Shown here: piece after piece, positions 417 to 63,174 of the stretch
How positions within the stretch are numbered: position 1 is the first letter of the stretch
Layout of the letters: every line of letters starts with the position of its first letter
Assembly (NCBI GenBank): GCA_963760795.1
Contig: CAVXEP010000007.1
Location: 96,001-160,000 of the forward strand
Source of the DNA: an uncultured delta proteobacterium
Lineage (GTDB): Bacteria; Desulfobacterota; Binatia; UBA9968
Direction of reading: 5' to 3'
DNA: 64,000 nt
Position numbers and translations under genes: made by a program
Notes under the pieces: generated by a model
Databases searched by the model: none
Seen by the model: only the letters and a program-made list of their open reading frames with translations
Told to the model about the DNA's origin: nothing

Positions 417-1725
417 TCAAAACTCCACGCACTTCGAAAAGCCTTGGCCCCAAAGATCAGCGCCGCCGATCATGACATCGCGCGCTTCCAATGGCAGCGC
501 GGCGCGCCCGTCTACCGGCGCTGCGCCGGGGAATGGAAATATCTTGATCTGCCGGTACGGCCCGATCACTTTGTCCATGGCCGGCAGTTCAATCGGCCGA
601 TCCAGAGTGCCGGTGCTGACCGCCGCATCAGCCTCGGCGACGTTGAACAGCACCGCACTATCCGTGCCCGCCTTGCCGCCGTTTTCATAGGTCACCAGCG
701 TCGCCTTGATGTTCTGCCGTTCGCAGGCGCGCAGCGTGAACATGACATCGACAAAGGCGTTGCCGCCGCCGATCCAGGTCACCAGCGCGCCATTGGCTCC
801 CATCGCCTTGGCGAGGCGCGCGGCATTTTGCGCGCCGACTTCTTTGCCATGGGAAGTTTCGAAGCGGATGCGCTGCAACACCACACCGGCAAAATTTAAT
901 GTTTTGCCATGGGCCGCGTACAACGCCAGCACCAGCGGATGATTCTGCCAATCCCATGTCGTCGGATAGTAACCGCGTCCCGAGCGCGTCGTATCGACGG
1001 TCACTGCGCCATCGAATAGCTCGTTGGGATGAACGTAGGTGGCCAGCGAACTGCGCAGCGACAAGCCGTAATAACCGACGCCCGAGTGAACATGCTGCGG
1101 ATCGGTGATAACGCCTTGTATCAGCATCACGTTGGGCAGGCGGGAGTCGGTGGCGGCGAGATCATAAGTAGTAACATGCGCCGGTGCCAATTCGGCGGTG
1201 ATTCGCGCCAAGCGCTCGGCGACTTTGAACTCAGCCAATTGAATCGCCGTGTGCGCATCGAGTTCCGCCAGACCGTCAACAATCGTGAAGCTGATAACCA
1301 GGTGACAGAGCGAACTAAAACGCGACACCGCCGCGCCAGGCCCAGACATGTCGAGGATCGCACTGCGCTGCACGGTCGTACCCGCGCGAATCGTCCCTTC
1401 ATAGGCCGCCGCCGCGACCACCGTCATGCCGGAAAGCCGATGGGTCCGCCCCGCGCCGACATCTTCGACCGCAGCCCAACACCCCGGCAAAAACCTGTCC
1501 GCCGCCGGAAACTTTGCATCGCGGCTCGACGATGTCGCGAATACCGGTAATGCGCGTCTTCTCCCCCGGCAGCGCCACCGCCAGCGAAACATCCTCAATC
1601 CGCGCATCCTCGCGCACCAGCGCGAGCAGCTCCCCTTCATCGACCTCGAGCACCTGGTTCTCGTACGAGAAACGATGGCTCAAGCGAATTTGCTTTACCG
1701 GAAATTCCGCGATCTCAAGTTTCAT
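417..1725 (-). CDS. Glycine/sarcosine/betaine reductase component B alpha/beta subunit (GrdE/GrdI-like), frameshifted near 1490
   Basis: N-term MKLEIAEFPVKQIRL...PGEKTRITGIRDIVEPRCK in one frame; C-term HPNELFDGA, QNHPLV, GGGNAFVD, EADAAVSTG in ORF 417..1640. Confidence 0.8.
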
Positions 1726-1755
1726 AATTACCGATGACCGACTGCAGTCCGAATA

Positions 1756-1795
1756 AACGATTGGAACGTTTTGAACGACTGGAACAATTGGAACG
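1756..1795. repeat. Periodic (t/g)gaac 9-bp repeat
   Basis: aacgattggaacgttttgaacgactggaacaattggaacg; same family at 8197, 30743, 33622, 43737. Confidence 0.7.
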
Positions 1796-1805
1796 TGTTC
1801 TGCGG

Positions 1806-2880
1806 TTACGGCGCCCCCATAATCTTGCGAAAGTCCTGAATATAAGTCGGCAAGATTCGCCCCCAGCTTGGGATTCACCACATAGTCCGGCTTCACTTGG
1901 AACTCTTTGAACTTGCTGCGCACTCCCTTCATGGCGCTGCCCTTGCCCAAGCTGCCGGCGAGAAAGTTCTGCGCCTCATCGGACAAAACCCACTCGACGA
2001 ACAGCAAAGCGGCATGTGGATGCGGCGCATTTTTCGCTACGAACAATCCTTCCGGTTTGACGATGGCCGGCGCCAGGACCTTGAAGCCTAACGGCGCGCC
2101 TTTTTCGCGGATCGCCGCCGAAGTCTCGCCGTTGATGGCGATGCCGATGGGATATTCGCCCGAGGTCACCACTTGCGTCGTCAAGGTCCCGCCGCGCCGG
2201 TAACTCAAGTCCTGCTTGGCAAGGCGCGATAAATAATTCACCGCCTTTTCGCGGCCCCACGCCTCTTCCATCGCCGCCAGAATGTAGCCCGCCTCCGGAT
2301 CGAAGAGCATTTTGCCTTTCCACGACGGGCTGAGCAGATCTGCATAACTCTTTGGCGCCTGCTCCGCTTTCACCGCGGCGCTGTTGTAGATGAGAGCCGT
2401 GGTTAAATAGTACATGCTGTGCCAGTTGCCGCTGGCATCGAAGGTGCCGTCAAAGTAACGGTTCGCGCCGGGCACTTGATACGCCTGCACCAGATTGGCG
2501 TTCATCAACTGGTAGCCATAGCTCAGGTCAACTTGTACCACATCCACCGCATGCCGCCCCGCCCGCGCTTCCGTCAAAGTCCGACTGAGAATGCCGTCCC
2601 GCGGCGAAAAATAATGATTCAGCTCCATGGCGCGATAGCGCGAGTTGTAAACCCGCGCCAACGGCAAAAACTCGTCGATCGGCAAGGTGCCGTAATAAGC
2701 CAACTCCCCTTCCGCCTGCGCGCCTTTGAGGAGATAGGCAATTCGCTCCTACGCTTTGAACGACTTAACTTTCGCCGCCACCTCGGCGACCGTTGCGGCG
2801 TGAAGCGGAACCAACCCCGCGGCCGTGCAAACCCATAATGCGCTAAAATAAACGAAAATATTTCCGAAGCCGCGTCCCAT
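1806..2880 (-). CDS. Extracellular solute-binding protein, Fe3+/AfuA-like family (frameshifted at both ends)
   Basis: ORF 1399..2703 core (PKSYADLLSPSWKGK, SGEYPIGI, KNAPHPHAALLFVEWVLS); ATG at 2880; likely true stop at 1806. Confidence 0.75.
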
Positions 2881-6561: not shown

Positions 6562-6621
6562 CCTTCAACCGGAGATTTTTTGCGTTCTTTTGCGTTCTTT
6601 GCGGCCAATCACTCCGGCCGG

Positions 6622-47209: not shown

Positions 47210-48315
47210 TTAAACCGTGCCCCAAACTTTAACGGCGGTATCGACTACCAACTTGAGCTTTTGCCACTGCTGCTCTTCCGTCAACAGATTGCCCTCCATC
47301 GTCGAGGCGAAGCCGCATTGCGGACTGAGCGCGAGATTCTCCAACGGCACGTACTTGGCGGCTTGGTCGATGCGCCTGGCGAGTTGGTCCGCCGACTCCA
47401 TGGCCGCCAGCTTGCTGCTGACCAGGCCGAGCACCACGCTCTTGCCGCGCGGCATGAAGCGCAGCGGTTCGAATGTCCCGGCGCGCTCGGACTCGTACTC
47501 GAGCAGAAACGTGTCGACCTGCAACTGGCCGAACAGTTTCTCGGCGATGGCGTCGTAGCCGCCCTCGGCGTACCACTGGCTGCGGTTGTTGCCGCGGCAC
47601 AGATGAATCGCCAAGATCACGCCCGTCGCGCTGCGCTCCCTCCAGGCAAGCGTTGTCGGCGCGAATCGCTTCGTCGAGCGCCTGATCGGGATCGAGCCCC
47701 ATTTCATTTTTCACGTAGCTGCGCCACTTCGGATCGATGTAGTAGCTGTAGCGCGGCGCGTCGATTTGGATGTAGCGCGCGCCTTCGGTCGACAAGCGCG
47801 TGAATCTCCGCCTTGATCACCGGCACGATGTCCCACAGAAAAGCGGAATGGTTGGGATAGACCTTGTCGCTGATGCCTTTCTTATAATAGATCGCGGGAA
47901 ACTGATTGGCGGTGGGCAGCGTGACTTTGATGTCGCCAGGCTGCTGCTGCTTCAAGAAGGCGAACTCATGGTCGGTCAGGCGCCGGGTTTGTTTGATCTT
48001 GCCGACAACCGTGCCGGGCACCATCGAGGGACGGGACGATGCGCCGGCTGCCGTTTGCCAAGTGCGCGGCACCGCCACCCCTTCGTCGATTCCTTCCACG
48101 GCTTCGTTGAAATCGCTCATGAAGTTGCCGCGGCGCAGCTCGCCGTCGGTAAAGATCTTGAAGCCGAGCTCCTTCTGCTTCTCGATCACTCGCAGGATGT
48201 GCTGGTCTTCAAGCGCGCGCAGCTCCGTGCCGCCGACATTCGCGCTGCGTGCCTGCAATAGCTCCGCGGGCCGAAGCAAACTGCCGATGTGATCGGCGCG
48301 ATACTTGGTTGCCAT
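47210..48315 (-). CDS. Cobalamin-independent methionine synthase core-domain family protein, copy 2 (frameshifts near 47630 and 47795)
   Basis: MATKYRADHIGSLLRP...HLCRGN...PQCGFAS; near-identical to 15871-16973. Confidence 0.88.
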
Positions 48316-48449: not shown

Positions 48450-49579
48450 CTATTCCGCCAAGAGTTTTTTCAACCTGGCGATCACCTCTGGCGGCTGGGC
48501 GATGACCTCTTTCGCCAGCGCGCTAAGCGCTTCGCCGCCCACCGCTTCCACCGGCCAGCATGCGCTTCTTCGCCTCGGCGAGCAGTTCGGGATCTTTCAT
48601 TGTGTTGCTCCAAGCGTCGCGCAGGGTTTTCAATCGGTCCGCCGGCATAGCCGGCGGCGCGGTCCAGGGCCGGCCAAATTCATTGGGCGCCATCACCAGC
48701 GTGGCGAGGCGGCGGCCGGCATCGTTAGTTTTGTAGCGATCCATCAGGTCGTAGAACGTGGGTGTTTCCGGCAGCAGAGGATCTCGTTTTTTGCCGGTCT
48801 GCACGAACGGACGCGTGAATCCTCTTTTGAACCAGCTGATGTGCGGTTCGCGGCCAAAAAACGCCGCGATGGTGATCAGCCGGCACTGCAACTCGCCGCG
48901 TTCGAGCGCCACGTCAATGTCCGCCGCGCCTTGATAACCGGTGATGATGGTAAATTTTACCGCGAAGATTTCCTCGATGAGCTTGGGCACATGATAAGTC
49001 GTCGAGCCGGTGCCCGTGGAGCCGCATTTGGGAGGCTCGGTCGCCTTGCGCAGGTCGTCGATCGTCTTGTACGGGCTATCGCCGCGGAAAAAAAACACCG
49101 CCTCGGTTTGTTCCGGCGTGCCGAGCCAGTTGAATTTCGCCCAATCGAACTGCACTTCCTTGCGGCCGATCAGCTGATCCATGTAGATGCCCGGATTGAG
49201 CGAACCGATGGTGAGCCCATCGGGCTTGGCGATATTATAAACATGATTCGCTGCGATCACCGATCCCGCGCCCGGCATGTTTTGCACCATGACGCTGGGA
49301 TTGCCGGGGATATGTTTGCCCAGATAGGTCGCGATGTGACGCGTCCAAAGATCGTACAGATCACCCGGCTGGCCGCCGCGGATGACGCGCACGGTTTTGC
49401 CTTGGAAAAAGTTCGATTGGGCGTGGGCCATCGCCCCACACACCGCGAGTGCGACAGCGATAGTGATAATCCCACCAATTTTGGTCCGCGGGACCGCTTT
49501 TGGATCTGCGGGACCGCTTTTGGATTTTGGATTGTCGGATCGAAAACCAAGCAACATCGTAAGAAGTATTTTGTGTCAT
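48450..49579 (-). CDS. Bug/TctC-family substrate-binding protein (frameshifts at both ends)
   Basis: ORF 48523..49557 FFQGKTVRV, QNMPGAGS, PPKCG; C-term ...VEKLLAE-like with stop at 48450. Confidence 0.82.
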
Positions 49580-49614: not shown

Positions 49615-50612
49615 TATCTTATGACCCGGTCCGCCCGCACCAGCACGTTGGGCGGAATCGTCAGGCCGATCTGCTTCGCCGCTTTCAGATTGATGATGAA
49701 CTCGAACTTCATCGGCTGCTCGACGGGAAGATCGGCGGGCTTCGCGCCTTTCAAAATCTTGTCCACATAGGTGGCGGCGCGGCGGTAGAGGTCGTTGAGA
49801 CTCACGCCGTAGCTCATAAGCCCACCGTCTTCCACAAAGTCTGTCAGCGGAGTACATCGCCGGGAGCCGGTTCTTTACCGCGAGATCGGCAATCTGTTTT
49901 CGCTGAAAGAGTGAAGACGGCGCCTCGCGCAGCACCAGGACTGCCTCAGCACGCCCCTTGCTTGCGGCTCGGAATACAGTCTCAATATCCTTGGGACCTA
50001 GTACGTCTAGATATTGAAGCTTCACTCCGAGCGCCCCGGCGGCGAGTTCCGTCTCTTTAGCGCTTGTGCGTTGCCCGGCATGGTTGAAGTCCCGAAGACG
50101 GCCACGCGGGAGAGCTTAGGAACGATCTCTTTCAAAAGCTCCAGCCGTTTGCCGCTTAGCTCCGGCGCAAGGGTTGACAATCCAGTGATGTTTCCACCAG
50201 GTCGCGCAAGGCTGGCGACGATCCCGGTTCCAACAGGATCGCTATCCTGCGCCATGACAATGGGAATCGTAATAGTTGCTTCCTTAGCAGCCCGGGTCGC
50301 TGACCGGACCGCCTGTGACGATGACGTCGACTTTGAGACGCACTAACTCGGCGGCAAGCGCGGGGAGACGATCGAGTTTTCCCTCTGCATATCGATACTC
50401 AATGACAATGTTTTTCCCCTCCACGTACCCAAGCTCGCGCAGGCCCTGGCGGAATGCCTCGATGCGGTCCGAGACAACGGAAGGGGAGGCACATCGTTAG
50501 GAATCCTATCCGGGGGATTTTCGTTGGCTGCTGCGCCTGCGCGGTCAAGGCTAAGCGCGAAGAGCAAAGCGCAAAGTGAAAGACGCTTGATGTTATTTCT
50601 CAAATGTCTCAT
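49614..50612 (-). CDS. ABC_sub_bind (PF04392-type) substrate-binding protein, frameshifted
   Basis: Fragments [52 protein letters not shown]. Confidence 0.8.
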
Positions 50613-50667
50613 TTGTGTTTTCTTGTTTCTTGCGCATTGCTCTCTGCCCTATGCGCTTGGCGTTCTA

Positions 50668-51665
50668 TCACCGAATCACTTTATCCGCCCGCACCAGCAC
50701 GTTGGGCGGAATCGTCAGACCGATCTGCTTCGCCGCTTTCAGATTGACGATGAACTCGAACTTCATCGGCTGCTCCACGGGAAGATCGGCGGGCTTGCGC
50801 GCCTTTCAAAATCTTGTCCACATAGGTAGCGGCACGGCGGGCCAAGTCGGCTAGGCTCGCGCCGTAGGTCATAAGCCCACCGGCTTCGACAAATTCACGC
50901 CGTGGAGTAGATCGCCGGGAGCCGGTTCTTTACCGCGAGATCTGCAATCTCTGTTCGATGAACATTGATGACGGAGCTTCGCCAGCACGAGGACTGCGTC
51001 AGCACGCCCCTTGGTTGCGGCGCGGAATGCAGTCTCAATATCCTTGGGATCTAGGACGTCTAGGATATTGAAGCTTCACCTTGAACGCCCCGGCGGCGAG
51101 TTCGATTTCTCTTAACGTTTGTGCGTTGCCCGCGTTGGTTGAAGTCCCGAAGACGGCCACGCGGGAGAGCTTCGGAACAATCTCCTTCAAAAGCTCCAGT
51201 TGTTTTCCGCTTAACTCCGGCGCAAGCGTCGACAACCCAGTAATGTTCCCCCCAGGTCGCGCCAGGCTAGCGACGAACCCGCTGCCAACAGGATCGTTAT
51301 CCTGCACCATGACAATGGGAATCGTATCTGTTGCTTCCTTGGCGGCTCGGGTATCTGTCGCACCACCCGTGACGATGACGTCTACCTTCAGACGCACTAG
51401 CTCGGCGGCAAGCGCGGGGAGACGGTCGACTTTTCCCTCTGCAAATCGAAACTCAATGACAATATTTTTCCCCTCCACATAGCCCAAGCTCGCGCAGACC
51501 CTGCGCGGAAAGCCTCGATGCGGGCCGAGACAGCAGAAGGGGAGCTGGCACATAGGAATCCTATCCGCGGGATTTTCGTTGGCTGCTGGGCACCGCGGTC
51601 AAGGTAAGCGCGAAGAGCAAAACGCAAAGTGTAAGACGCTTGATGTTACTTCTCAAATGTCTCAC
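50668..51665 (-). CDS. ABC_sub_bind substrate-binding protein, frameshifted (tandem copy)
   Basis: [36 protein letters not shown]; N-term [10 protein letters not shown] like the neighbour. Confidence 0.8.
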
Positions 51666-51720
51666 ATGTGATCTCCTGTTTCTTGCGCATTGCTCTCTGC
51701 GCTATGCGCTTGGCGTTCGA

Positions 51721-52736
51721 TCACCGAATCACTTTATCCGCCCGCGCCAGCACGTTGGGCGGAATCGTCAGGCCGATTTGCTTGGCTGCTTTCAGATTGA
51801 CGATGAACTCGAACTTGATCGGCTGCTCGACGGGCAGGTCAGCGGGCTTGGTGCCTTTCAAGATCTTGTCCACGAAGTCGCGGCGCGGCGGAACAGGTCG
51901 GAACAGCTCGGCGCGTAGCTCATCAGGCCGCCGGCTTCTCACCAAACTCACGTCGCTGAGTACATCGCCGGGAGCCGGTTCTTGACCGCGAAGCTCCGAC
52001 ACTCTGTGTTCGCTGAGTAGCGAAAGTGCCTCCGCCCTGGCGTAAAGATCGCCTGCGTCGGCCTGTTGCTTGATCGTCATCGCGTAATGCGTCTGCGAAA
52101 TCGTTAAGACTTCGCACGGCAAGGACTCGCTGAAGCTTTCACTCCCAACGCCTGGCCGCGCCTCGATTTCCGTCAGATTCAGCTTCTTCTCGGTGCCACC
52201 CGCTTCGCACTAAGAAGACGGCGACTCGGACAGCTTTCGGAAGGACTTCCTTGAACAGCTCCAGCCGTTTGCCAGCTTAGGTCCGGCGCCATGTCAGCTA
52301 ATCCGGTGATGTTTCCGCCAGGCTTCGCGCCAGGCTGGCGACCAATTCCGGTTCCAACAGGATCGCCGGCGCAAGCGCGAATACGATGGGAATCGTTGTC
52401 GTCGCTTCTTTAGCAGCTGCAATTGTCCCGGACCACCGGTGACGATGACGTCGACTTTGAGACCGACCAGTTCGGCTGCAAGGTCAGGCAGGCGATCGGG
52501 ATTTCCCTCGGCATATCGGTACTCGAATGACGAATGTTTTCATCCTCGACATAGCCCAAGCTCGCTGCAGCCGCTGGCGGAAATGCTTCGATCCGGGCCG
52601 ATTGCGACGAGAGGCGGCGTATCAGTTCGAAGAGAATTCCTATCCGCGGGATTCTTCTCGGCTGCTGCGCCTCGGATGCAAAGCTAAGAGCCAAAAAAAT
52701 GGCGCCCAGAGCAAAGACGAAGATTTTTTTACTCAT
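51721..52736 (-). CDS. ABC_sub_bind substrate-binding protein, heavily frameshifted
   Basis: [17 protein letters not shown]...[10 protein letters not shown]; C-term [22 protein letters not shown]...ADKVIR. Confidence 0.75.
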
Positions 52737-52788
52737 AGGATTTCTTCGCGCTGCAAAGTTCAGAATCGAAAAAGCATTGTGTCGCGCA

Positions 52789-52914: not shown

Positions 52915-53838
52915 CTAGCGAAAAGTCTCCTTGATGTAGCGGTACGCCGCGATCGCCGCGGTGGCGCCGTCGCCGGCGGCGGCGATGGCTTGTCGCGCCG
53001 AGTCCTGGCGGATATCGCCGACGGCGTAGAGGCCGCCGCGCGTGGTTTCCATCCAGGTGTCGGTCGGGACATGGCCGGTGTCGCCTAGCTGAACGATATT
53101 TTTCACCAGCGCCGTGTTCGGCTGCAAGCCGACGTAAACGAATAGGCCGGCGAGCTCGACTTGGGAAGTTTCGCCGGATCTAACGGCGCGAGCGCGCACG
53201 CCGGTGACGACTTCGTCGCCGAGAACTTCTTCGATGACCGTTTGGTAATGCGGCGTGATCTTCGAGTTGTCCAACACCCTTTGCAAATAGGTCTGCTGCG
53301 CGGCAAACGAATCGCCCTGATGAAAGAGCAAGACTTTCTCGGCGTAATTGGTCAGCGCCAACGCTTCCTGCAGCGCCGAGTCGCCGCCGCCGACGACGCC
53401 GACGGTCTGGCCGTTGTACATCGGGCCGTCGCAGCTGGCGCAATGGCTGACGCCGCGGCCCATGAGTTTTTCTTCTCCCGGGACACCGAGATGCTTGAGT
53501 GTCGAGCCGGTGGCGACGATCACCGCTTTGGCCTGATAGCTCTCTTCCTCCGTGACCACCGACCAGAGTTTTTCTGCCGCATCGAGTCGCAAAACTTCGG
53601 CGCGTTGAAACTCCGCGCCATGATCCGAAGCCTGACGCTGCAAGTTGGGGCAAATTTCATAGCCGGAAACGCCGTCGGGGAAACCGGGAAAGTCTTCGAT
53701 CTTTTCAATGCTGATCAGATGGCCGCCGGGGATGTTCGATTCGAAAACCAAAGTCGAGAGTCCCTGGCGCGCCGAAAAAAGCCCGGCGGTGAGGCCGGCG
53801 AGGCCGGAGCCGACAATGATTACATCGTAATCTGCCAT
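52915..53838 (-). CDS. trxB: Thioredoxin-disulfide reductase
   Basis: IVGSGLAG, GRGVSHCASCDG (CxxC), VGGGDSA, GLYAVGD, AAGDGATAA. Confidence 0.9.
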   Translation of the reverse strand: MADYDVIIVGSGLAGLTAGLFSARQGLSTLVFESNIPGGHLISIEKIEDFPGFPDGVSGYEICPNLQRQASDHGAEFQRAEVLRLDAAEKLWSVVTEEESYQAKAVIVATGSTLKHLGVPGEEKLMGRGVSHCASCDGPMYNGQTVGVVGGGDSALQEALALTNYAEKVLLFHQGDSFAAQQTYLQRVLDNSKITPHYQTVIEEVLGDEVVTGVRARAVRSGETSQVELAGLFVYVGLQPNTALVKNIVQLGDTGHVPTDTWMETTRGGLYAVGDIRQDSARQAIAAAGDGATAAIAAYRYIKETFR

Positions 53839-53881
53839 GATGTCTTAGTATTCTTTCGTGTACTGTGAGCTTCGTTCGAAA

Positions 53882-53952
53882 GTAAGGGGTCAGGGGTAAG
53901 GAGTTAGGTGTGGGGATGACGGACGCCTCACTCCTGACCCTTTACGCCTTAC
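53882..53952. repeat. 7-bp periodic gtaaggg/ccttac inverted repeat
   Basis: gtaaggggtcaggggtaaggagttagg ... cctcactcctgaccctttacgccttac. Confidence 0.7.
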
Positions 53953-53964
53953 TGTTCCCGTCTG

Positions 53965-55630
53965 TTATCTCCATTTATCCACCGACACCGTCTTCTGATA
54001 GTTGCAATCCATGATGCGCCAGTAGCCGTTGGTTTCGCCGCCGACGACGACGACGTGGATTTCCTCGGGCTTGAACATGTGGATCATTTCGTCCGGGCCG
54101 GCTTTTAACTTCGACGCGTAGGGTTCTTCGCCGAAGGTGGCGCGTGGATAGGATGTAATTTTGGATCAATTGATAATCCCAGTATTCCTTCGCCGCCATG
54201 AGCGAGTTTTCATAGGCCCATTCGATCAACTTCTCTTTGCTGTCGAAACCGCCGCGGTCGATGAACTGACGCGCGGTGATGGGATCGAGCAAGAAGGTCG
54301 GGCGGCTGTGGGCGTCGAGACCGCGCAGCATGCTGCGCACATGCTCGCGCCAATATTGCTCGCGCACGCCGAGGGTAAACGCCGTCGAGCGGCAGCCGGT
54401 GAATACGCTGACGGCGCTGTCGCTGGCCTTGAAACCATGTCCGACGTGGAACGGTGTCCACGGGCTGCGCTCCTCGTTCTCGGCAAAGGTCACGTTGTTG
54501 TAGGCGTAGTTGTTGCCCTGGGAGCCCATGTAGGTGACGCCGGGCACCGAGCTGCCTTGGCCGTTTTGCGAGAGCAGGCCGTAGGCGCGGCCGATGGTGG
54601 CGTTGGCGTGGTTGAACGGTCCCATGGCGCCGGTGCCGCTGTTCATCTTAATTTCGTTTCTAATCGGTCCGTTGACGACCACCATGGCGGCCGCTGAGCT
54701 CGACGTGCTGCCGCGGGCGGTGACGCCGGTGGACGCGAGCGCCAGGATCACCGGAAAGTATTCCGGCCGGGCGCCGGACATCACCGCGTTGACCGCGACT
54801 TTTTCCACCGTGTATTCCCAGTATTCTCTGAAATGGGTCGAGCGCATGTGGCCGACCACTTCGTCGGGCTTGTGGCTGGTGTGCGCGAGCATTTCCTTGA
54901 CGCGTTTTTCCGTCGGCAGGACGATGGGCAGCTTGTCGGTCCAATTTTTGTCGAGAAATAGCTGCTGCAAATTCTCTTCGCTATCGGCATCGACCAGGCG
55001 CGGCGTCGCGGCATGGGCGAATTTCTCACTGACAACGCCGCTGTCGTCGATCGGTTGGGTCAGCCCCTCGATGACTTCCTGCATCACCGGCCGGCCGCTG
55101 AGCGGGTCCTTGCCGTCGATGTAGGCGCGCAGTTGTGCCGCGGTCTTGCCCATCACCGGTTGCGGCACGAAGGCGCGCGGCGCCCGCGGCATGCCATGGA
55201 CGCGGTTCACCGACTCGACGACTTTTTCAAACACATGGGTGTGCAGCGCCACCGTGGGCACACCGTATTTATTATCGAGGGTCATTGCATGCGCGGCGAC
55301 CGCCGGCGCACAGGTGCTTCAATGACCGACACCGACGATGGCGGCATCGCCGTCGGCTTTGATCTTCTCCCAGGTCTGCGGATCGTCCTTGGTGTAGACG
55401 TTGTTCATCTCGATGAACTTGGTTTTTACCGTCGGCATGTTGTCGGTGAACCAACTCTGCAACTGGCGCAGAAACAGTCCCGAGTCGTCGAAGCGCGGAT
55501 CGACTAAATAGACGGTCTTGCCGTCCAAGCTGTCGAGCCGCGGCGCCAGCGCTTTGGGCGTGATCTTGGGCGGATAGCCCACCGGGTTTAACACCGACAT
55601 GTTTTGGGTTGCGTTAGTGCTGTCAGCCAT
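53965..55630 (-). CDS. UGSC-family selenoprotein (Sec at TGA 55319-55321, motif GH-U-STC) fused to a large domain of unknown function; frameshift near 54148
   Basis: ORFs 55319..55630 and 53975..55285 are in frame, separated only by TGA plus 11 sense codons (STCAPAVAAHA); SECIS-like hairpin follows; corrected C-term ...GGETNGYWRIMDCNYQKTVSVDKWR*. Confidence 0.85.
55288..55312 (-). promoter_or_regulatory. Bacterial SECIS element
   Basis: After UGA: AGCACC UGUGCG C CGGC [GGUC] GCCG CGCAUG; 4-bp upper stem, one bulged base, GGUC loop starting 18 nt after UGA. Confidence 0.75.
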
Positions 55631-55718
55631 AGGTAAATCCTCCTGGTTCTATTTATGATCTAGCTGGAAAGTAATCAACCGATTTTTTCGGCAGTGGTTC
55701 AGTTTCATAAAAACTTTG

Positions 55719-55802
55719 GTAGGGGCTACCCGGCGCCTGCCCTGAGCGGAGTCGAAGGGTGGTCGCCTGTCCCAGAGGGCAGACACGCAGGCCTACCCCT
55801 AC
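55719..55802. repeat. GTAGGGGC-type REP doublet with a nested cctgagc-gtcgaaggg unit
   Basis: gtaggggctacccggcg[cctgccctgagcggagtcgaaggg]tggtcgcc ... gggcagacacgcaggcctacccctac. Confidence 0.75.
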
Positions 55803-56869
55803 TCGGCGAGAAGTTTTTTTACTCTCTCGATCACCTCGGCGCTCTGGTCCATGACTTCGTGCGCGAGCTTTTGCAACTGCTCTCCCGGCGTGTAGTCGAC
55901 ATCCAGGTTGCTCTTCTTCACCTCGGCAAGCAGCTCGGGGTCCTTGAGCGCTTGCGCGTAAGCGGCGCGCAGGATCTTCACGAGTTCCGCGCGCGTGCCC
56001 GGCGGCGCGATCAGGGCGCGGCCAAAATCATTCGCCGTGAGCACCGTTTCGGCAACACTCCGGCTCACCTGCGGGGTCTTGTATTCACTCATGATCTCCC
56101 AGATCGTCGGCGTCTCGGGCAGCCTCGGGTCGCGGCTGCGCGCGTCCTGCACCAGATGGCGGTCGTAACCTTTCGCATGCCAAGTGTTAAACGGTTCACG
56201 GCCGAAGTGAGATGAGATGTCATGACCGCGGCAGACCACCTCGCCCTTTTCCACGGCAAGATCGATTTCTTTGCCGCCGGCGTAACCGACGATGACATTG
56301 AATTTCGCGCCGACGGTTTCCTCCAGAATCTTGGGTAAAATGTAGCCGGAGCTGGCAAAGCCCGAGGCGCCGCATTTCGGCGGCTCTTTCGCCTTGATGA
56401 CATCGCCGATGGTTTTGAAAGGAGCGTCGCCGCGAAAATAGAGCATCTGCGTCCATTTTTCTTGGCTGCCGATCCAGTCGAATTTGCGCACGTCGAACTT
56501 GACCTCGGTGCGTCCGACCAGTTGGGTTAGATAGAGGCTGCTATTCGGTATGCCGACGGTGAGGCCGTCCGGTTTGGCGACGCTGTAAACGAAATTGGCT
56601 GCCACCACCGAACTGGCGCCGGGCATGTTTTGCACGATCATGTTCGGGCGCCCCGGAATGAATTTCGGCATGCTCCGGGCGAACATGCGCGCCCATTGAT
56701 CGGACAAACCGCCGGCGGTGAAACCGACGATAATTCGAATCGTCTTGCCTTGGTAGTAGGGCTCCGTTTGCGCCTGACCTGGAGCCGTTATAGCGCCGCA
56801 GAGCAGAATCGCGACCAAAGGCAGCGCACACATCGACGCGCGCACTAAGAATGGAAATTTTTCAAACAT
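55799..56869 (-). CDS. Bug/TctC-family substrate-binding protein
   Basis: YYQGKTIRIIVG, QNMPGAS, KPDGLT, PPKCG. Confidence 0.9.
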   Translation of the reverse strand: MFEKFPFLVRASMCALPLVAILLCGAITAPGQAQTEPYYQGKTIRIIVGFTAGGLSDQWARMFARSMPKFIPGRPNMIVQNMPGASSVVAANFVYSVAKPDGLTVGIPNSSLYLTQLVGRTEVKFDVRKFDWIGSQEKWTQMLYFRGDAPFKTIGDVIKAKEPPKCGASGFASSGYILPKILEETVGAKFNVIVGYAGGKEIDLAVEKGEVVCRGHDISSHFGREPFNTWHAKGYDRHLVQDARSRDPRLPETPTIWEIMSEYKTPQVSRSVAETVLTANDFGRALIAPPGTRAELVKILRAAYAQALKDPELLAEVKKSNLDVDYTPGEQLQKLAHEVMDQSAEVIERVKKLLAE

Positions 56870-61991: not shown

Positions 61992-62132
61992 CAGGCAATG
62001 GGCATTGGGCACTAGGCAATGTAGGGGCGGATAAGGGAGCGCGGGTTTTCCAACCCGCGATTAACCGCGGACAAGAATGTCCGCGCTCCAATGTCGCCCG
62101 TTCTGAGGGCCGACACGCAGGTCGGCCCCTAC
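61992..62132. repeat. 7-bp ggcaat repeat plus GTAGGGGC REP with nested ggagcgcgg/ccgcgctcc doublet
   Basis: gtaggggcgg...[ggagcgcgggttttccaacccgc ... gcggacaagaatgtccgcgctcc]...gagggccgacacgcaggtcggcccctac. Confidence 0.75.
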
Positions 62133-62179
62133 ACGCGTCCGAATTGGAAAAGGGGAAGCAAGAGTCGAGGGAAACCCCC

Positions 62180-63174
62180 ATGCGTAAGAAAATCACTCGG
62201 CGAGCTTTTTGCTCGATGCTCTTGGCTCTTCCCTTTCCAGCTCAGGCGCAGCAGGCAGGGAAAATCTTCCGCATCGGTTTCCTGGATGCAAGCACTGCTT
62301 CCGGTAGCGCGGTCCTCATGGAGGCGTTCCGCGCAAGAGCTGCGCAAGCTTGGCTGGATTGAGGGAAAGAATATCACCATCGAGTACCGGTTTGCCGAGC
62401 AAAAGCCTGAGCGCCTGCCTGAGCTTGCGGCGGACCTGGTTCGTCTTAAGGTTGATCTGATCGTGGTCACAGGGGCACCATCGGCGTTGGCGGCCAAGAG
62501 CGCCACCACTACGATCCCCATCGTGATGACGAACGCTGCGGATCCCGTGGGCTGCAGGTTTGGTTGCCAGTCTGGCGCGGCCGGGAGGCAATGTCACCGG
62601 TTTCTCGAGCTTAGTCAGATCGAGCTAAACACCAAACGGCTAGAGATACTCAAGGACGCGGTCCCCAAGCTCGCCCGAGTTGGACTTCTGCGGACGCCGG
62701 AACAACGGCGGACACCAAACCTCCAACTGAAAGATCTCAGGGCTGCGGCTGAGGCACTGAAGCTAAAATTGGAGGAGATCGAGACTCAAGTCGACGCCAA
62801 AGGTTTAGAGAGCGCCTTTCAAACCGCAAAGCAGAAGCAGGTCAAAGCGATTATGACGACCGACCACTCGCCAATTTTTCGCGGAACGAAAGCGGATCGT
62901 CGAGCTTGCCGTCAAATACCGCTTGCCGGCTATTTACTTCCAGAAGGAGTTTGTCGATGAGGGCGGTCTCATGTCCTACGGGACGGACTACGAAGACCTG
63001 TACCGCAAGGCCGCCCACTACGTCGACAAGATTCTCAAGGGAACGAATCCTGCCGATCTGCCTGTACAGCAGGCGACGAAGTTTGAATTTATCATCAACC
63101 TGAAGGCGGCAAAACAGATTGGTCATACGATTCCGATCGGATTGCTGGAGCGGGCGAATCAGGTGATCAAGTGA
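62180..63174 (+). CDS. ABC_sub_bind substrate-binding protein, frameshifted
   Basis: MRKKITRRAFCSMLLAL, GWIEGKNITIEYR, GGLMSYG, DKILKGTNPADLPVQQATKFE. Confidence 0.82.

Follow-up and report, generated by a model that had tools for sequence, protein, structure and literature searches.

What recharges a selenoprotein whose gene stands beside a thioredoxin reductase (TrxR)-like gene, on a contig that bears no match to the thioredoxin family? The question is raised by a minus-strand gene pair in a 64,000-nt stretch of DNA (the window) from an uncultured delta proteobacterium (Desulfobacterota; Binatia; UBA9968; GenBank assembly GCA_963760795.1, contig CAVXEP010000007.1, positions 96,001 to 160,000). 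One gene encodes a predicted selenocysteine (Sec) protein in which an N-terminal UGSC-family domain is fused to a 346-residue C-terminal domain (C-domain); the other encodes a TrxB-like flavoprotein disulfide reductase. Together, a Sec-decoded protein of the fused UGSC branch and a dedicated TrxB-type flavoprotein would, on balance probably, form a two-protein reductase that is independent of thioredoxin. The value that the locus adds is a conserved, dedicated TrxB paralog, profile evidence that joins the Sec modules of UGSC and GrdB/PrdB, and a large partner domain for which no solved fold exists. It offers a testable idea of how a common soil selenoprotein works.

The selenocysteine codon and its family

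The minus-strand frame 53975-55630 held 551 open codons when TGA was taken as Sec. Its single in-frame TGA was codon 104 (55321-55319), in the context AIVGVGH-U-STCAPAVAAHAMTLDNKYGVPTVALHT, just as a preliminary description of the stretch had quoted it. At this codon 41 of the 80 homolog loci carried TGA (Sec forms) and the other 39 carried Cys (TGC or TGT; Cys forms), a distribution by which the TGA was taken to be kept beyond chance. The TGA was also seen in independent public contigs (X1 record 7, 55068-55330, 0 differences; X5 record 23, 55292-55498, 1 difference); in this cover, stretches uncovered in every run carry no meaning. RNA contigs of one metatranscriptome (X15) matched 13 of 30 bins at 90-99% likeness, which is not evidence of this gene's transcription.

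The 60 nt after the UGA were folded as RNA and gave a hairpin that started at +7 nt, with a 10-bp stem, one bulged C and a GGUC loop. Its energy was not unusual against shuffles (z 0.45) in G+C-rich DNA, so the fold alone proves nothing, and an Rfam search matched no selenocysteine insertion sequence (SECIS) family. The 13-nt core CCGGCGGTCGCCG (+15 to +27) was present in 33 of 33 Sec forms examined (including the window) and in 0 of 38 Cys forms. Third codon positions +17, +20, +23 and +26 were 100% conserved in Sec forms, compared with 50-71% in Cys forms, and the remaining third positions varied freely in both sets. From these comparisons, codon 104 was assigned as a Sec codon with high confidence. 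The genome encodes tRNA-Sec, and its selB, selD and selA scored over the curated cut-offs. These three genes lie together (C11:1948-7514), and selD has an in-frame TGA and so is itself a selenoprotein.

The N-terminal domain matched Pfam PF24696 over residues 13-169 (82.7 bits, cut-off 25), as did 16 of 16 family members tested. Its score of 54.3 bits on the NCBIfam equivalog NF041046 lay under the cut-off of 125, which points to a divergent branch and not to a canonical short UGSC protein. When 14 fused and 2 canonical UGSC domains were aligned (U read as C), C104 and C107 were invariant; across the 80 genome loci the motif was [GA]VGH-[U/C]-S-[TN]-C. The window protein therefore shares with canonical UGSC proteins both the PF24696 match and the aligned U/CxxC pair, but has USTC in place of UGSC. 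Its branch bears the 346-aa domain as a fusion and is associated with a TrxB-like gene, whereas neither of the genome's two canonical UGSC loci has a TrxB-like gene close by.

At least 5524 protein relatives were returned by a word-indexed search. The best 120 of these measured either ~552 aa or, where the protein begins at the Met that follows the Sec codon, ~438 aa, and 7 of the 120 bear the NCBI name 'UGSC family (seleno)protein'. As far as the accessible portions of the cited papers go, the UGSC-containing protein of Zhang and Gladyshev has been a selenoprotein family from metagenomes since the mid-2000s (PMC2398784, PMC1976440), ranks among the most abundant predicted selenoproteins of ocean and non-marine metagenomes (PMC2398784) and is of unknown function (PMC13188914, PMC9312934, PMC1976440), still being listed as uncharacterised in a 2026 review (PMC13188914). 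A 'UGSC/Unknown_1' fusion was reported in 2008 (PMC2398784); Unknown_1 is not equated here with the 346-residue domain. The UGSC passages of the papers cited above, a coverage exclusive of subscription journals and the 2008 supplement, mention neither a TrxR neighbour nor a link to GrdB/PrdB. Since the UGSC family was described earlier, and the fused form is abundant and named by NCBI, the gene is of a known kind: judged by sequence, it is a member of a known, named, functionally uncharacterised selenoprotein family.

A FastTree phylogeny was built from 70 homolog loci (10 of the 80 were omitted, their gene being truncated or their motif not located) and placed Sec and Cys forms on opposite sides of one branch (1 change). 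Cys forms came from Proteobacteria and Agromyces; Sec forms came from Binatia, 'delta' metagenome-assembled genomes (MAGs), Rokubacteria, Chloroflexota, Latescibacterota, Verrucomicrobiota, Gemmatimonadota and Dormibacterota. Natural Cys forms with the same TrxB-like neighbour occur in cultured Rhizobium, Neorhizobium, Sphingomonas, Ramlibacter and Agromyces.

The TrxB-like partner and the proposed electron path

The preliminary description had placed a trxB gene with a CASC site 126 bp downstream on the same strand, had seen no thioredoxin gene nearby and had proposed conservation of the linkage as a check. Every feature that it listed is present in the sequence, and its interpretation was supported in part. 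The distance is correct provided that the TAA at 53965-53967, where the conserved frame stops, is taken as the selenoprotein's end. The thioredoxin family PF00085 had 9 matches in the genome and 0 on contig C7, and three full thioredoxins are encoded elsewhere. The linkage proved to be conserved in several phyla: of the 80 loci, 32 had a TrxB-like gene adjacent (same strand, ≤200 bp) and 36 had one within 6 kb; when only the 67 loci flanked on each side by 1.2 kb or more are counted, the numbers are 31 and 35. Split by form, the adjacent loci made up 24 of the 39 Cys and 8 of the 41 Sec loci. Linked loci belonged to Alpha- and Betaproteobacteria, Agromyces, Binatia, 'delta' MAGs, Verrucomicrobiota and one Chloroflexota, and each of the two clades of the protein tree, Sec and Cys, included loci with a TrxB-like gene. 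It lay mostly downstream of the UGSC fusion, and upstream in some Alphaproteobacteria.

The 307-aa TrxB-like protein scored 327.1 bits on TIGR01292 (cut-off 343.45) and 144.7 bits on PF07992 (residues 4-291), and has an HCASCDG redox site. AhpF-type models also matched it, far below their cut-offs. A second, ordinary TrxB, 41% identical, is encoded in the genome. The window reductase differs from this housekeeping type in falling below the TIGR01292 cut-off, in having HCASC and not ACATC, and in belonging to its own clade: 37 linked TrxB-like proteins split from 2 housekeeping TrxBs with branch support of 100/100 (only two outgroup sequences). HCASCDG was found in 34 of the 37, compared with ACATCDG in the housekeeping TrxBs, and HRRxxxR was degenerate in the linked enzymes. 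The TrxB-like tree parted into the same Sec group and Cys group as the UGSC-fusion tree, which is consistent with old co-inheritance and losses; presence within 6 kb changed at least 8 times on the tree.

The pair follows the same logic as TrxB-Trx and AhpF-AhpC, in that a low-molecular-weight TrxR-type CxxC flavoprotein stands beside a U/CxxC redox-pair protein, but the UGSC acceptor domain is predicted to be flavodoxin-like and not to have the thioredoxin fold. Over 10 residues, the TrxB-like site GVSHCASCDG (53415-53444) resembles GVGH-U-STCAP of the UGSC domain (55300-55330; hhalign 20.5%), a likeness that is probably convergence on the CxxC context.

In the proposed path, NAD(P)H, the presumed electron donor, would reduce flavin adenine dinucleotide and then the CASC dithiol of the TrxB-like enzyme. 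The dithiol would pass electrons directly to the Sec104-Cys107 selenenylsulfide on the flavodoxin-like UGSC domain, and the resulting selenol/thiol pair would reduce a substrate bound by the 346-residue C-domain, for which a catalytic role is envisaged. The locus and its 80 relatives could show whether a TrxR paralog feeds U/CxxC directly, and what role the C-domain has.

A predicted complex of the two partners, suggested in the preliminary description, was obtained with the natural Cys-form pair of TrxB-like protein and UGSC domain from locus L032 and with three controls. The score was 0.50 (runs 0.50, 0.50 and 0.53), compared with 0.00 for the best control, and the verdict was 'weak support'; contact agreement between runs was at least 59% and partner pLDDT (predicted local distance difference test score) at least 81. 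In the calibration, 58 of the 80 solved complexes and 2 of the 110 mismatches reached the mark.

Several observations weigh against the proposed two-protein reductase. The HRRxxxR motif binds the 2'-phosphate of NADPH; the window TrxB-like protein reads HQGDSFAA at this site (housekeeping paralog, HRRDKLRA), and the missing Arg residues leave the donor in doubt. Of the 80 loci, 44 had no TrxB-like gene within 6 kb, and 32 of the 41 Sec forms were among these 44. Linkage was found in 0 of 6 Rokubacteria and 0 of 5 Latescibacterota, and was absent from 17 of 18 Chloroflexota loci. When five unlinked genomes were searched whole, an HCAxC-type paralog was present elsewhere in just one; the partner is thus not universal. 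The 36 longer TrxB relatives included 0 TrxB-UGSC fusion proteins, which is weak evidence; a long open reading frame (ORF) of locus L024 that seemed to join the two genes proved to lie in a different frame and is no fusion. The complex score is weak by its calibration, as scores of 0.60 or less were given by just 7 of the 80 solved complexes and by both mismatches. The window's copy of the fused gene is frameshifted. Finally, distant fused paralogs (28-50% identity) often lack one or both CxxC residues and keep the C-domain motifs NAVMAG and S-T-x-S (P0124, P0132, P0135, P0143, P0148, P0202-P0268), so that C-domain chemistry would not always depend on the pair; for the same reason the C-domain is probably the core enzyme, with the redox pair a feature of this branch.

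General thiol systems (housekeeping TrxB/Trx, low-molecular-weight thiols) could instead serve the UGSC fusion, with the TrxB-like enzyme loosely co-inherited for another job such as AhpF/AhpC-style peroxide or disulfide stress. Loci without a TrxB-like gene within 6 kb, the four of five whole unlinked genomes with ordinary TrxB types only, the three thioredoxins elsewhere in the genome and the scores on AhpF-type models all speak for this account. It was nevertheless judged unlikely: tight same-strand adjacency recurs in the 32 loci across at least five phyla and three gene orders, the two protein trees share their Sec/Cys split, the linked enzymes are a separate clade with its own active-site signature, and a 307-aa protein of this type is without the AhpF N-terminal domain.

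The frameshift near the 3' end

In a DNA alignment the window carried an extra base (ATCCTATCCACG) compared with ATCCTG-CCGCG in 3 of 3 closest relatives. The last ~60 codons of the frame ending at 53975 are an Arg-rich nonsense tail, and the neighbouring frame (~54150 to the TAA at 53965) yields the conserved family end PRATFGEEPYASKLKAGPDEMIHMFKPEEIHVVVVGGETNGYWRIMDCNYQKTVSVDKWR. The fused gene is otherwise intact, with 94-96% identity to the loci L022 and L027. Two public contigs covered 54148-54152 (runs X1 and X7; two studies; 94-95% alike), and each was one base shorter there.

Split frames were also seen elsewhere in this MAG, in the GrdE-like gene (window 417-2703, minus strand) and the MetE-like gene (47229-48315, minus strand); the UGSC fusion of contig C13 (L001 393-2202, minus strand) is likewise split between two frames. 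This pattern suggests assembly indel errors rather than many pseudogenes. From the other split genes of the MAG and the public contigs without the extra base, an assembly indel was taken to be more likely than decay. A decaying pseudogene in this genome, with a real frameshift and an inactive locus, is distinctly improbable. The insertion does stand in the assembly, and ~2.7 kb of fragmentary binding-protein ORFs that are absent from relatives lie downstream of the TrxB-like gene; but the rest of the gene is intact, both public contigs over the site are without the extra base, and at least three other MAG genes are split by frame changes of a kind that would fit assembly indels.

Sec-module likeness to GrdB/PrdB, the C-terminal domain and flanking genes

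In GrdB and PrdB, a Sec/Cys pair performs the reductive chemistry, and glycine reductase is recharged by a TrxB/Trx system. The preliminary description had likened the Sec context to both proteins by eye, and profile comparison bore this likeness out. With a 16-row UGSC-domain alignment as the hhalign query, 78.9% was obtained against the genome's own GrdB-type selenoproteins (E 1.6e-5, 97 columns) and 85.5% against 19 PrdB-like selenoproteins (E 5.7e-6, 93 columns). Both alignments covered UGSC residues 83-194 and set Sec on Sec and GVPTV on GIPTV; in the PrdB-like comparison Cys was also aligned on Cys. Controls gave 20.5% for UGSC against the TrxB-like protein (10 columns around CxxC), 0.15% for UGSC against the C-domain and 0.17% for the C-domain against GrdB, and PrdB-like against GrdB, as positive control, gave 99.7%. 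A distant common origin of the UGSC and GrdB/PrdB Sec modules is thus supported, not proven, by these profiles. The modules are alike in having UxxC at the end of a beta-strand, then a helix, then a G-[IV]-P-T-V strand. The UGSC protein differs in that its likeness is limited to ~95 residues, in lacking a PF07355 match, in having a different, uncharacterised fused domain, and in a cluster that contains neither a GrdE/PrdA-type neighbour nor a thioredoxin.

The further proposal, a Grd/Prd-type system to which the GrdE-like gene at 417-~1725 belonged as part of a dispersed toolkit, was not supported; that gene is present (PF09338, 220 bits), but is unrelated to the locus, and other GrdE-like genes adjoin their own GrdB-like genes. 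A true Stickland-type (Grd/Prd-like) reductase, in which Sec would attack a substrate on a pyruvoyl subunit such as this GrdE-like protein, is very improbable: in its favour the Sec modules are alike at 79-86% with Sec in register and the genome is rich in GrdB/GrdE-type genes, but PF07355 was unmatched in the window protein and in 16 UGSC domains up to E 10, a GrdE-like tblastn query had 0 matches in 83 loci (including all 80 homolog loci), within which no GrdE/PrdA-like gene was found, the window's GrdE-like gene lies 52 kb off, and the C-domain had next to no likeness to the GrdB profile. A profile search of the PDB gave no PF07355-type (GrdB/PrdB) chain.

Five PF07355 GrdB-like genes are present in the genome, each beside a GrdE-like gene and all on other contigs. 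Four of the five read through TGA as selenoproteins, with ILTST-U-GTSTRSGAAITTELEKAGIPTV (..T-U-GT..); the fifth (C4:155454-156504) is divided over two frames, and the frame read showed no Sec motif. A thioredoxin-like match (C20:123378-123620) adjoins the C20 pair. For a non-clostridial soil bacterium the Grd-type gene set is rich. The 120 database relatives listed for the genome's own GrdB-like protein are all cut at the Sec codon. When 60 other genomes of the class were searched, a PrdB-like motif LVPV-U-PVCHQSVGLIARxxEAAGIPTL was found, and PF07355 was matched in 30 of 61 genomes of the class, mostly via this short PrdB-like form. Such short selenoproteins (L095-L118; VPV-U-PVCHQSVGLIAR...AGIPTL) would be cut at the TGA by gene callers.

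The structure of the fused protein was modelled with AlphaFold2 on the L027 ortholog (96% identical, Sec read as Cys, 41 alignment rows), as the window copy is frameshifted; pLDDT was 92.7 and pTM (predicted template modelling score) 0.91. Foldseek comparison of the full model with the PDB returned generic Rossmann-type rows only (best E 1.8e-4, TM 0.15-0.25). For the C-domain alone, the best row was class I fumarate hydratase (E 3e-3, TM 0.2), followed by barbiturase/cyanuric acid hydrolase rows at E 0.27 or worse; none of these candidates was retained. The C-domain matched no Pfam or NCBIfam family, a PDB sequence search found no relative of either domain, and an ESM Atlas search gave unannotated clusters only. 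A structure of the 346-residue domain would add a fold without a solved relative.

The C-domain family is large (4687 cluster representatives at E ≤0.001), and the domain also occurs as a separate protein adjoining stand-alone UGSC genes. All three UGSC genes of the genome are fused to, or adjoin, a C-domain homolog. A natural split was found in two Vulcanimicrobiota MAGs (L012, L009), with a 205-aa UGSC protein and a 353-aa protein from the next codon; in L012 (5950-7629) the UGSC protein ends at 6567 and the C-domain protein starts at 6568. The fused domain had been put forward as a new substrate-binding or catalytic module; an uncharacterised module it is, but the UGSC family to which it is joined was already known (PF24696, NF041046). 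A stronger version of the proposed reductase, namely that the fused USTC/CSTC UGSC protein and its private TrxB-like enzyme would be a new two-component class, with a Sec/Cys module distantly derived from GrdB/PrdB, direct thioredoxin-free recharge by a TrxR paralog and a catalytic domain of a fold unseen in solved structures, is put forward tentatively as a possibility that is itself doubtful.

Table 1. Positions of the genes and sequence elements discussed (window coordinates, except for the last row).
Feature	Position	Strand	Remarks
Fused UGSC-family selenoprotein gene	53965..55630	-	~554 aa with readthrough; ATG 55630, TAA 53965-53967 (conserved frame)
Ribosome-binding site AGGAGG	55639..55644	-	8 nt 5' of ATG, read from sequence
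N-terminal UGSC domain, residues 1-195, motif U104-S-T-C107	55046..55630	-	Predicted flavodoxin/CheY-like alpha/beta fold
Sec codon TGA, codon 104	55319..55321	-	TGA in 41 and Cys (TGC/TGT) in 39 homolog loci
SECIS-like hairpin	55288..55312	-	Invariant core CCGGCGGTCGCCG at 55294-55306
C-terminal domain, 346 residues from TPRL (residue 209)	53965..55006	-	Matched no known family or fold
1-nt insertion (frameshift) relative to close relatives	54148..54152	-	DNA alignment
Intergenic gap, 126 bp, with stem-loop	53839..53964	-	
TrxB-like flavoprotein disulfide reductase, 307 aa, HCASCDG	52915..53838	-	
TctC-family periplasmic binding protein, upstream	55799..56869	-	PF03401; conserved neighbour in closest relatives
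TctC-family gene	48523-49557	-	Directly 3' of TrxB-like gene in relatives, as is MetE-like gene
MetE-like gene, two overlapping frames	47229-48315	-	Cluster representative matches PF01717
Gly_reductase/GrdE-type gene	417-~1725	-	PF09338 220 bits, plus 78 bits for the N-terminus in another frame
GrdB/GrdE-like pairs, own genome	C13:10175-12413, C20:124131-126339, C4:120871-123733, C4:155454-158103, C1:107265-109405		

The gap between the UGSC and TrxB-like genes was scanned for terminators, and no terminator-like site was found; a promoter scan gave 0 sigma-70-like sites. The stem-loop in the gap (53871-53955) had an energy of -33.3 kcal/mol (z -1.86) and is common to the window and L027, with some paired changes, but not to L022. 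Its one Rfam row was a chance miRNA match (E 0.33) and was rejected. The TrxB-like gene is separated from the next TctC gene by ~2.7 kb of repeated, fragmentary ORFs (50000-52750), which resemble, by eye, the ABC_sub_bind protein at 62091-62960. In L021, L030 and L036 the TctC gene directly follows the TrxB-like gene, without this stretch. The two MetE-like ORFs of the window had no Pfam match on their own.

Among the homolog loci analysed, recurrent neighbours were TctC (15 loci), AMP-binding (14), GntR (12), malonyl-CoA decarboxylase (11), SDR (11), MetE-like (9) and Amidohydro_2 (6), and none was general across the fused UGSC family. TctC binding proteins and a MetE-like gene characterise the Binatia/'delta' group and the window; malonyl-CoA decarboxylase, an AMP-binding ligase, a GntR regulator and an ABC transporter are found in Rhizobiales, sphingomonads and Agromyces. 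The malonyl-CoA decarboxylase/AMP-binding neighbours may be a hint of the pathway, and from the TctC/MetE-like flanks of the Binatia type, together with the malonyl-CoA decarboxylase/synthetase flanks of the other groups, a small carboxylate may be a candidate substrate. The malonyl-CoA decarboxylase/AMP-binding (mat-like) pair lies upstream in L028, L033, L035, L037, L040, L042, L043, L050, L053 and L061 and downstream in L011 and L052, and thus occurs in more than one gene order.

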